Below, piece after piece: positions 5,401 through 5,516 of a DNA stretch of 10,354 bases (within the stretch, counting starts at the first letter, position 1; every line of letters begins with the position of its first letter). The notes beneath the pieces were generated by a model. That model made no database searches. It saw only the letters and a list, made by a program, of their open reading frames with translations, and was not told where the DNA came from. Both the position numbers and the translations under genes were made by a program. The DNA is from a virus (taxonomy: Duplodnaviria > Heunggongvirae > Uroviricota > Caudoviricetes), in IMG/VR virus record IMGVR_UViG_2563366849_000004, positions 1 through 10,354 of that record; one strand, 5' to 3'.

Positions 5401-5428
5401 GTGTATTCATTCCAACGAGTGAATACAC
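5401..5428. repeat. Perfect 9-bp inverted repeat (gtgtattca N10 tgaatacac)
   Basis: Read directly from the sequence. No U-run follows on the + strand, so it is not an obvious + terminator. Sits at the boundary between the minus-strand cargo block and the + early operon. Confidence 0.5.
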
Positions 5429-5490
5429 GGAGCAATGTCGCTCGTAACTAAACAGGAGCCGACTTGTTCTGATTATTGGAAATCTTCTTT

Positions 5491-5516
5491 GCCCTCCAGT
5501 GTGAGGGCTTTTTTAT
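5491..5516 (+). terminator. Intrinsic terminator (orphan, + strand)
   Basis: GC-rich 6-bp stem gccctc/gagggc with a 6-nt loop, followed by tttttt. The reverse complement has no U-run, so it is + specific. No annotated + gene lies upstream of it. Confidence 0.6.

Follow-up and report, generated by a model that had tools for sequence, protein, structure and literature searches.

What are a perfect inverted repeat and a terminator without an apparent gene doing at the junction between the cargo genes and the early operon of an element that carries no repressor gene? The question was raised by a sequence-only reading of the 10,354-nucleotide stretch of viral DNA analysed here, which we refer to as the window. 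That reading proposed that an unannotated plus-strand transcript, either a small RNA or the mRNA of a small protein, ends at 5516, and that the repeat may be an operator of the early operon. We found that 5391-5516 very probably holds a copy of the PreS module that lambdoid phages carry, with the hairpin that contains the repeat inferred to be a processing signal. The coordinates of the features are collected in Table 1.

Table 1. Features of the window, with coordinates, strand and the basis of each assignment.
Feature	Position	Strand	Basis or remarks
Tyrosine integrase	1-1158	+	ORF and domains
HumD-family S24 protein	1232-1618	-	ORF and domains
Acyltransferase	1805-2842	-	ORF and domains
P22-type tailspike	2915-5032	-	ORF and domains
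68-codon ORF, C-terminal end of P22-type DNA-transfer protein gp16	5188-5394	-	
Deletion junction, CATA microhomology	5352-5355		Three-way alignment with intact relative L005 and E. coli KSC207
Extended RNA hairpin	5391-5438	+	Arms 5391-5412 / 5417-5438, 4-nt loop CAAC; repeat search and RNA folding
9-bp perfect inverted repeat, GTGTATTCA / N10 / TGAATACAC	5401-5409 / 5420-5428	+	Upper stem of the hairpin
PreS (LPR1) small RNA, ~87 nt, by homology	5430-5516	+	Lambda 34011-33925; primers and lambda identity
PreS 5′ stem-loop, GAGC/GCUC	5430-5443	+	RNAalifold consensus
PreS internal stem-loop, AACAGG/CUUGUU	5451-5468	+	RNAalifold and covariation
PreS seed, TGTTCTGATTATTGGAA	5465-5481	+	Seed-deletion and M1 primers, Table S5 of the preprint
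Intrinsic terminator, lambda tL2a homologue	5491-5514	+	PreS 3′ end and U tail; stem GCCCTC 5491-5496 / GAGGGC 5503-5508, loop CAGTGT, T6 5509-5514
Second imperfect hairpin, then TTTTCGTT; cIII leader	5518-5559	+	Homologous to the lambda ea10-cIII spacer
cIII-type gene, first gene past PreS	5581-5751	+	ORF; position matches cIII/C3 of relatives
cIII, kil, erf, abc2-like, Ea22, DUF551 etc. through xis	5581-10354	+	ORFs and domains

Both elements were present much as they had been described. The repeat is perfect over 9 bp with a spacer of 10 nt, and the clean plus-strand terminator, which had been put at about 60 bp past the repeat, starts 62 nt after it. The stem of the terminator has six base pairs, five of them G-C, and is followed directly on its 3′ side by T6, as in an intrinsic terminator. 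We likewise saw no credible plus-strand gene upstream of it in the window. Perfect 9-bp repeats with a loop of 3-12 nt were expected 0.51 times per dinucleotide-shuffled window, and at least one occurred in 32% of the shuffles; taken on its own and from the window alone, the repeat has no significance. A lax terminator pattern matched 18 times in the window versus 9.0 ± 3.2 times in the shuffles. Since neither the repeat nor the terminator is significant within the window, the case for real features rests on comparison with other sequences. Homology to the characterised lambda locus and compensatory change across relatives show that, as judged by such comparison, both are real.

The segment from 5353 to 5516 shared 96.4% identity over 166 nt with the ral-ea10 spacer of lambda, in which the 9-bp repeat corresponds to 34040-34013. 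Within it, homology shows 5430-5516 to be the predicted gene of the Hfq-dependent small RNA PreS, formerly LPR1. Nucleotides 1-79 of PreS (window 5430-5508) were identical to lambda 34011-33933 at 79/79 positions. The lpr1 cloning primer starts with GAGCAATGTCGCTCGTAACT, which is window 5430, and the left arm of the full deletion in the preprint ends at window 5429. According to the accessible text of that preprint, the 5′ end of PreS is placed by the cloning primer and a Northern band of ~88 nt rather than by nucleotide-resolution mapping. The seed and the M1 mutation site (CTG, 5469-5471) are identical to those of lambda, so the PreS seed is present in the window. The operon context matches on the downstream side (cIII, kil, erf through xis), whereas the upstream side is deleted at 5352-5355. 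Every feature by which a PreS copy would be recognised at the level of sequence is in place. The proposal of an unannotated plus-strand small RNA at the terminator therefore held, its 3′ end being the tL2a homologue, with a U tail of the kind that the proximal face of Hfq would bind. The RNA itself, however, had already been described.

That description is due to Silverman, Nashef, Bruner, Noy and Melamed, who renamed LPR1 as PreS (bioRxiv 10.1101/2024.10.31.621285); the statements on lambda in this paragraph follow the accessible text of their preprint. PreS lies between ea10 and ral, is strongly enriched on Hfq, has tL2a as its 3′ end, and gives bands of ~88 nt and, more strongly, ~68 nt on Northern blots. 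It is made in the lytic cycle only, appears from 10 min after induction of cI857 and is undetectable unless pL is derepressed. Its seed pairs with host mRNAs. By exposing the ribosome-binding site of dnaN, PreS activates translation of this mRNA; it also represses alaS, and lytic replication benefits from it. Deletion of the seed or of the whole RNA lowered spontaneous phage release 2- to 4-fold in an Hfq-dependent manner. The authors surveyed the conservation of PreS at an identity threshold of at least 92%.

The window resembles the lambda PreS locus in the sequence of nucleotides 1-79, the seed, the terminator hairpin, the upstream hairpin and the position relative to cIII. It differs in that ea10 is absent and PreS is directly followed by the cIII leader, as is common in nature, and in that the upstream operon including pL and N is deleted, which makes expression uncertain. 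The segment 5517-5580 matches the lambda ea10-cIII spacer. The non-coding block from 5352 on was found in 2276 of the 5426 complete E. coli genomes, whatever the upstream gene, and in 372 phage records. Salmonella P22-like phages carry a divergent PreS family with ~73-75% identity over the aligned part of the spacer, and its stems change compensatorily. A scan of species-representative genomes gave no host-range information: the matches were almost only exact lambda DNA in low-coverage or ~48.5-kb contigs from unrelated taxa, and the rest were chance 18-mers in GC-rich genomes.

For a comparison across relatives, IMG/VR was scanned with the invariant PreS 5′ motif, yielding 120 loci with 87 distinct sequences. 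Unguided RNAalifold recovered the upstream hairpin, the PreS 5′ stem-loop, the internal stem-loop and part of the terminator. The 5′ stem-loop and the lower stem of the upstream hairpin are mutually exclusive; the pairs of the 5′ stem-loop are invariant, which makes covariation uninformative there in either direction. In the internal stem (5451-5456 / 5463-5468), an A-U pair became G-C in 16 sequences, and a G·U pair became A-U or G-C in 17. Nearly all of the divergent variants from Salmonella phages retain the seed core GUUCUGRUUA. The minimum-energy RNAfold structure of mature PreS, in which the 5′ end is paired with the seed, was rejected, as 16-19 sequences break its pairs with no compensation. 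The Rfam 15 covariance models gave no match over 5385-5516 at E ≤ 1. A scan of the homologous site in lambda and two Salmonella phages also gave no match, and PreS is absent from Rfam 15.

The terminator is annotated in related phages. The record of phage O276 labels the identical stem-loop 'Transcription terminator tL2a', and the mEpX1 record labels the same stem-loop a rho-independent terminator. The tL2 terminators of the lambda pL operon form a cluster, reportedly due to Luk and Szybalski (1983), in which tL2a comes first. In lambda and in the window the stem-loop GCCCTCCAGTGTGAGGGC is followed by a T-run; the lambda tail differs in having GA and then T6 after the stem, whereas T6 follows the stem directly in the window. 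Lambda tL2a is read through by N-modified RNA polymerase, whereas the window has no N, and termination at tL2a should therefore be efficient here. Divergent homologues keep the terminator stem with a different sequence, GCCGCTC...GGGCGGC. This covariation was scored by eye only, the MAFFT alignment being out of register at this place. A search of the accessible literature on tL2/tL2a and on RNase III processing near ral found nothing relevant.

The 9-bp repeat is only the top of a longer structure. In the extended hairpin, 18 of the 22 positions form Watson-Crick pairs and two more are U·G, so that 20/22 are paired on the plus strand; the mismatches are A·A (5398/5431) and C·A (5394/5435). The 3′ arm takes in nucleotides 1-9 of PreS, and the 3′ end of the 9-bp repeat lies 2 nt before the PreS 5′ end. 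RNA folding gave z = -5.9 for the hairpin and z = -5.6 for the precursor. In phage O276, the left arm of the hairpin has been lost to an IS903 insertion. The hairpin folds almost equally on the minus strand (-24.4 versus -24.9 kcal/mol on the plus strand), and the assignment of the strand therefore rests on the wobble pattern and the known transcript. All wobbles are U·G on the plus strand (alignment columns 19-48, 20-47, 26-41, 29-38 and 31-36), and they become A·C mismatches when the other strand is read.

Across the 87 distinct homologues, the upper stem lies between conserved flanks, with the consensus GAATAAGCAC upstream and GAGCAATNTCGCTCGTAAC downstream. Between these flanks, it is one of four unrelated sequences in the same register: GTGTATTCA / TGAATACAC, which is the type of lambda and the window, ATAGCAGA / TCTGCTAT, AATGCGGA / TCCGCATT, or AATGACCA / TGGTCATT. 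Both sides changed in eight of the nine upper-stem pairs, and 99.6% of the cells remained paired, a level that none of the shuffled and slid controls approached. The lower-stem pairs were kept in 86-87 of the 87 sequences, and the lower stem takes in PreS nucleotides 1-4 in 87/87. Which type is present depends neither on the upstream gene nor on the type of the PreS body, indicating that the top of the hairpin acts as a small module, free to change in sequence provided that it still pairs. Comparative analysis shows the reported inverted repeat to be, as predicted from these alignments, the upper stem of a plus-strand RNA hairpin and not a DNA operator. One caveat to this reading is that symmetric change in a DNA palindrome can mimic covariation.

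The sequence-only reading had likened the repeat to the binding site of a dimeric protein, possibly an operator controlling the early operon, which we now consider very improbable. The repeat is a perfect 9-bp palindrome with a centre-to-centre distance of 19 bp and no U-run, and a palindrome with a similar half-site, GTTTATTCAT-N4-ATGAATAAAC, occurs at 2251-2274. However, the half-site is not enriched in the window (5 versus 2.6 ± 1.6, not significant), and promoter scans found no promoter-like site nearby. In intact phages the site is not at a promoter but far within the pL operon, with N and other genes upstream, and a documented RNA has its 5′ end right next to it. Different phages do carry different palindromes at this one position, as heteroimmune operators do, but the stem sequence has been replaced outright: the homologous loci have four unrelated stems and no conserved half-site. 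The hairpin types are not linked to the upstream gene or the PreS body either, and this independent assortment means that no cognate protein gene is linked to them. In addition, the helix continues beyond the palindrome only through U·G pairs, which are A·C mismatches on the other strand. A LexA box was also considered and dropped, since the repeat reads CTGT...TCCA by eye, with no LexA match. The other product that had been offered, a small-protein mRNA translated from the 31-codon ORF at 5435-5530 (MSLVTKQEPTCSDYWKSSLPSSVRAFLYAYQ), has next to no probability. The ORF is there, with GGAG 2 nt before its ATG, but this Shine-Dalgarno spacing is too short, the ORF runs through the terminator, and indels shift the frame in the Salmonella-type variants. 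The reading fails because the ATG at 5435 is not conserved, being ATA or ATT in the divergent homologues. The lambda RNA, moreover, behaves as a base-pairing small RNA with a mapped seed.

How would PreS be produced? Between 5330 and 5430, a promoter scan and a separate scan for -10 and -35 elements found nothing usable as a promoter of PreS itself, and the would-be -10 positions before the PreS +1 differ between the hairpin types. Given that PreS seems to lack a promoter and is seen only once pL is active, it must presumably be cut from the long early leftward (pL) transcript. The hairpin would then direct the processing that fixes the 5′ end of PreS, most likely through double-strand cleavage by RNase III. 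The putative cut would fall before G5430 and its partner after G5401, leaving 11 bp on the loop side, two paired positions (U5400·G5429 and G5401-C5428) between the cuts and nine positions below. RNase III accommodates ~22 bp and produces 3′ overhangs of 2 nt; at sites cleaved in vivo, the dinucleotide between the cuts is usually paired and includes at least one G-C pair (Altuvia et al.). The freed PreS 5′ end could re-pair, GAGC (5430-5433) with GCUC (5440-5443), and the ~68-nt form would arise from an additional cut within the single-stranded GUAACUAAAC segment, probably made by RNase E. Like T7 R1.1 and the lambda N-leader and sib sites, the hairpin has a helix of ~22 bp with internal mismatches and a putative cut 11 bp from the loop; unlike at those sites, the cut here is putative. 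The prediction that RNase III creates PreS at this hairpin, which would make the hairpin a site not described before, is a tentative one, to which we give somewhat less than an even chance. RNase III is not mentioned in the accessible text of the preprint.

The arrangement of 11 + 2 + 9 positions around G5430 is that of the lambda-type hairpin. The three other types are shorter, with a loop-side helix of only 8-9 bp, and of the two positions flanked by the putative cuts one is mismatched (pair 19-48, with 18 unpaired). These types fit RNase III less well. A serious alternative, if rather an unlikely one, is that the hairpin is real as an RNA structure but protects the 3′ end of the upstream message, be it ral or another gene, from 3′ exonucleases or marks an RNase E boundary, and is not an RNase III site. 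For many different upstream genes, the stop codon and the start of the hairpin are only a few nucleotides apart, the stem sequence varies freely while staying paired, as expected of a purely physical barrier, and the non-lambda helices are too short for a classical RNase III substrate. However, the conserved module boundary (GAATAAGCAC) lies upstream of the hairpin, indicating that the hairpin travels with PreS and not with any particular upstream gene. PreS nucleotides 1-4 are part of the lower stem in all 87 sequences, and both the 22-bp length of the lambda type and the position of the PreS 5′ end match the geometry of RNase III cleavage. There is also a slight chance that the top of the hairpin is a swappable specificity cassette, with four discrete types being exchanged freely between two conserved joints. 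The release of PreS from the pL transcript might then be timed by an RNA-binding factor or RNA partner particular to each type, comparable to boxB variants that are read by their cognate N proteins; this too is quite improbable.

DicF offers a parallel to the proposed processing of PreS from a longer transcript. This Hfq-binding small RNA is encoded in the early operon of the Qin prophage, just upstream of a cell-division-inhibitor gene. Endonucleases free it from a polycistronic transcript; its 3′ end is of the terminator type, and it targets ftsZ. PreS resembles it in the logic of biogenesis, whereas the targets differ (ftsZ versus dnaN and alaS). DicF had no Rfam match in the window at E ≤ 1 and has no sequence relationship to PreS.

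The absence of a repressor gene and of an owner for the terminator has its explanation in the history of the element. The window is a complete 10.35-kb defective prophage at the tRNA-Arg(CCU) gene argW. An exact-protein look-up found the same arrangement in the natural chromosome GCA_000351965.1 (contig KB733421.1), flanked by tRNA-Arg(CCU)/yfdC on the integrase side, where argW lies next to int, and by dsdC on the xis side. The window runs from the int ATG to the xis stop with the two genes at opposite ends because attP lies between xis and int in this phage group. The same look-up also found an intact relative with full gene 16 and the head genes. In the three-way alignment, the window follows intact gene 16 to ...GCCATA and then continues as pL-operon spacer; homology to g341c, BTP1 and HF4s ends at ~5355. 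To the left of the junction, gene 16, on the minus strand, is reduced to its last ~56 codons; to the right is the pL-operon spacer. As read from these alignments, an illegitimate deletion appears to extend from within gene 16 to a point shortly before the PreS block. In intact relatives, the stretch thus lost holds the genes for head, lysis and replication together with the immunity region, pL and N. The terminator is an 'orphan' and the repressor is missing because of this large deletion with its junction at 5352-5355; both are by-products of the deletion and not features of design. We searched for the junction in the 5426 complete E. coli genomes and found it in none, indicating a rare and probably recent event.

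With neither pL nor N in the window, this copy of PreS and the operon from cIII to xis are probably poorly expressed or silent. The stronger claim, that the PreS module here is an inert relic and that neither PreS nor the cIII-to-xis operon is transcribed, stands in our view at an even chance. The deletion takes away all known upstream promoters, and lambda PreS, in the accessible text of the preprint, is not detected without derepression of pL. The only upstream candidate on the plus strand is an isolated TATAAT at 5100 that lacks a usable -35. The rarity and probable recency of the junction, found in 0/5426 genomes, also fit a relic. On the other hand, PreS and every downstream ORF are intact, and the perfect -10 hexamer, 330 nt upstream and likewise on the plus strand, is accompanied by a strong Shine-Dalgarno sequence and a 23-codon ORF. 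Read-through from this -10 would end at tL2a and would give a PreS-containing RNA. Any plus-strand transcription would start antisense to the gene 16/tailspike region and, for want of antitermination, would end at tL2a. PreS may thus be silent in this prophage, or perhaps the sole product.

For annotation, these results mean that 5430-5516 should be recorded as PreS/LPR1 with tL2a, and that the 'missing repressor' reflects a large deletion in a defective argW prophage. Relative to the accessible text of the preprint, three observations may be new: the covarying hairpin at the 5′ boundary of PreS, the divergent PreS variants of Salmonella phages, and the fact that a prophage remnant without pL has kept PreS intact. 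The hairpin that overlaps the PreS 5′ end provides a concrete, testable model of how PreS would be excised from the pL transcript. The survival of an intact PreS after the loss of pL and N raises the question of whether such remnants still affect the dnaN of their host.

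The remnant, the window prophage after its deletion, holds a single candidate from which + strand transcripts could reach PreS, the lambda Hfq-binding sRNA: a unit of + strand elements. Its perfect TATAAT is followed by a GGAGGA Shine-Dalgarno sequence and then by a 23-codon ORF encoding a hydrophobic peptide, MERDWLNFAFLIFGICVGIALFT, which lies antisense to the junction of gene 16 and the tailspike gene. We found no good -35 element for this TATAAT and no family match for the ORF.

Features of the window considered here
Feature	Position	Strand	Detail
HumD-family UmuD'-like S24 protein	1232-1618	-	128 aa; NCBIfam NF051876, 218 bits
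LexA-box-like palindrome, perfect	1636-1655		TACTGTAT-N4-ATACAGTA
P22 sar-like match	1736-1802	+	32.7 bits, E = 0.002
10-bp palindrome, perfect	2251-2274		GTTTATTCAT-N4-ATGAATAAAC
TATAAT, perfect	5100-5105	+	
23-codon ORF	5128-5199	+	
cIII variant (MQQFAIAG...)	5581-5751	+	
isrK-like match	9723-9783		20 bits, E = 0.83
Hairpin	9760-9779		AAACCGCC-N4-GGCGGTTT

The HumD-like gene, located between int and the acyltransferase gene, is shared by the window and its intact relative L005. The LexA-box-like palindrome is 18 bp upstream of its start, and the gene appears to be a moron, an accessory gene under SOS control. Between the HumD-like and acyltransferase genes, a match to the P22 sar antisense RNA spans the full length of the Rfam model at a score below the gathering score of 43. 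A second Rfam match, to isrK, was weak; it ends in a hairpin that T-runs flank on both strands and that could therefore act as a bidirectional terminator close to where the operon reaches xis. The palindrome within the acyltransferase ORF has a half-site one base off that of the 9-bp inverted repeat in the hairpin at PreS, a likeness that was not above chance (5 matches vs 2.6 +/- 1.6 in shuffles).

The lambda cIII thermoregulator element (Rfam RF01804) gave strong matches in lambda and phage Oslo (88 and 84 bits, respectively); neither the window cIII variant nor the SEN22 cIII was matched. The comparison covered the window cIII gene and positions 619-677 of locus L003. The window allele may be without this mRNA switch.

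A divergent PreS family was present in Salmonella and other P22-like phages (loci L008-L010, L015, L018, L027, L028, L050, L092, L112, L114 and others). Its members carry an additional stem-loop of about 12 nt upstream of the terminator and comprise at least three body types. In the hybrids L076 and L126, a lambda-type 5' half is joined to a Salmonella-type 3' half; evolution of the PreS block proceeds through recombination, which takes place at short joints that are conserved. The genome contig scan also returned exact lambda sequence from assemblies of unrelated taxa, including Shewanella, Pseudomonas, Neobacillus, Kitasatospora and Bradyrhizobium, as low-coverage or ~48.5-kb contigs (L131-L159). 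Contamination with lambda control DNA, rather than biology, is almost certainly the cause.

In phage O276 (L007, MH547045; 560-640), an IS903 insertion terminates within the hairpin and has removed the whole 5' arm. PreS and its terminator tL2a are both intact. Phage O276 is an existing natural mutant that could show whether the hairpin is required for making PreS.
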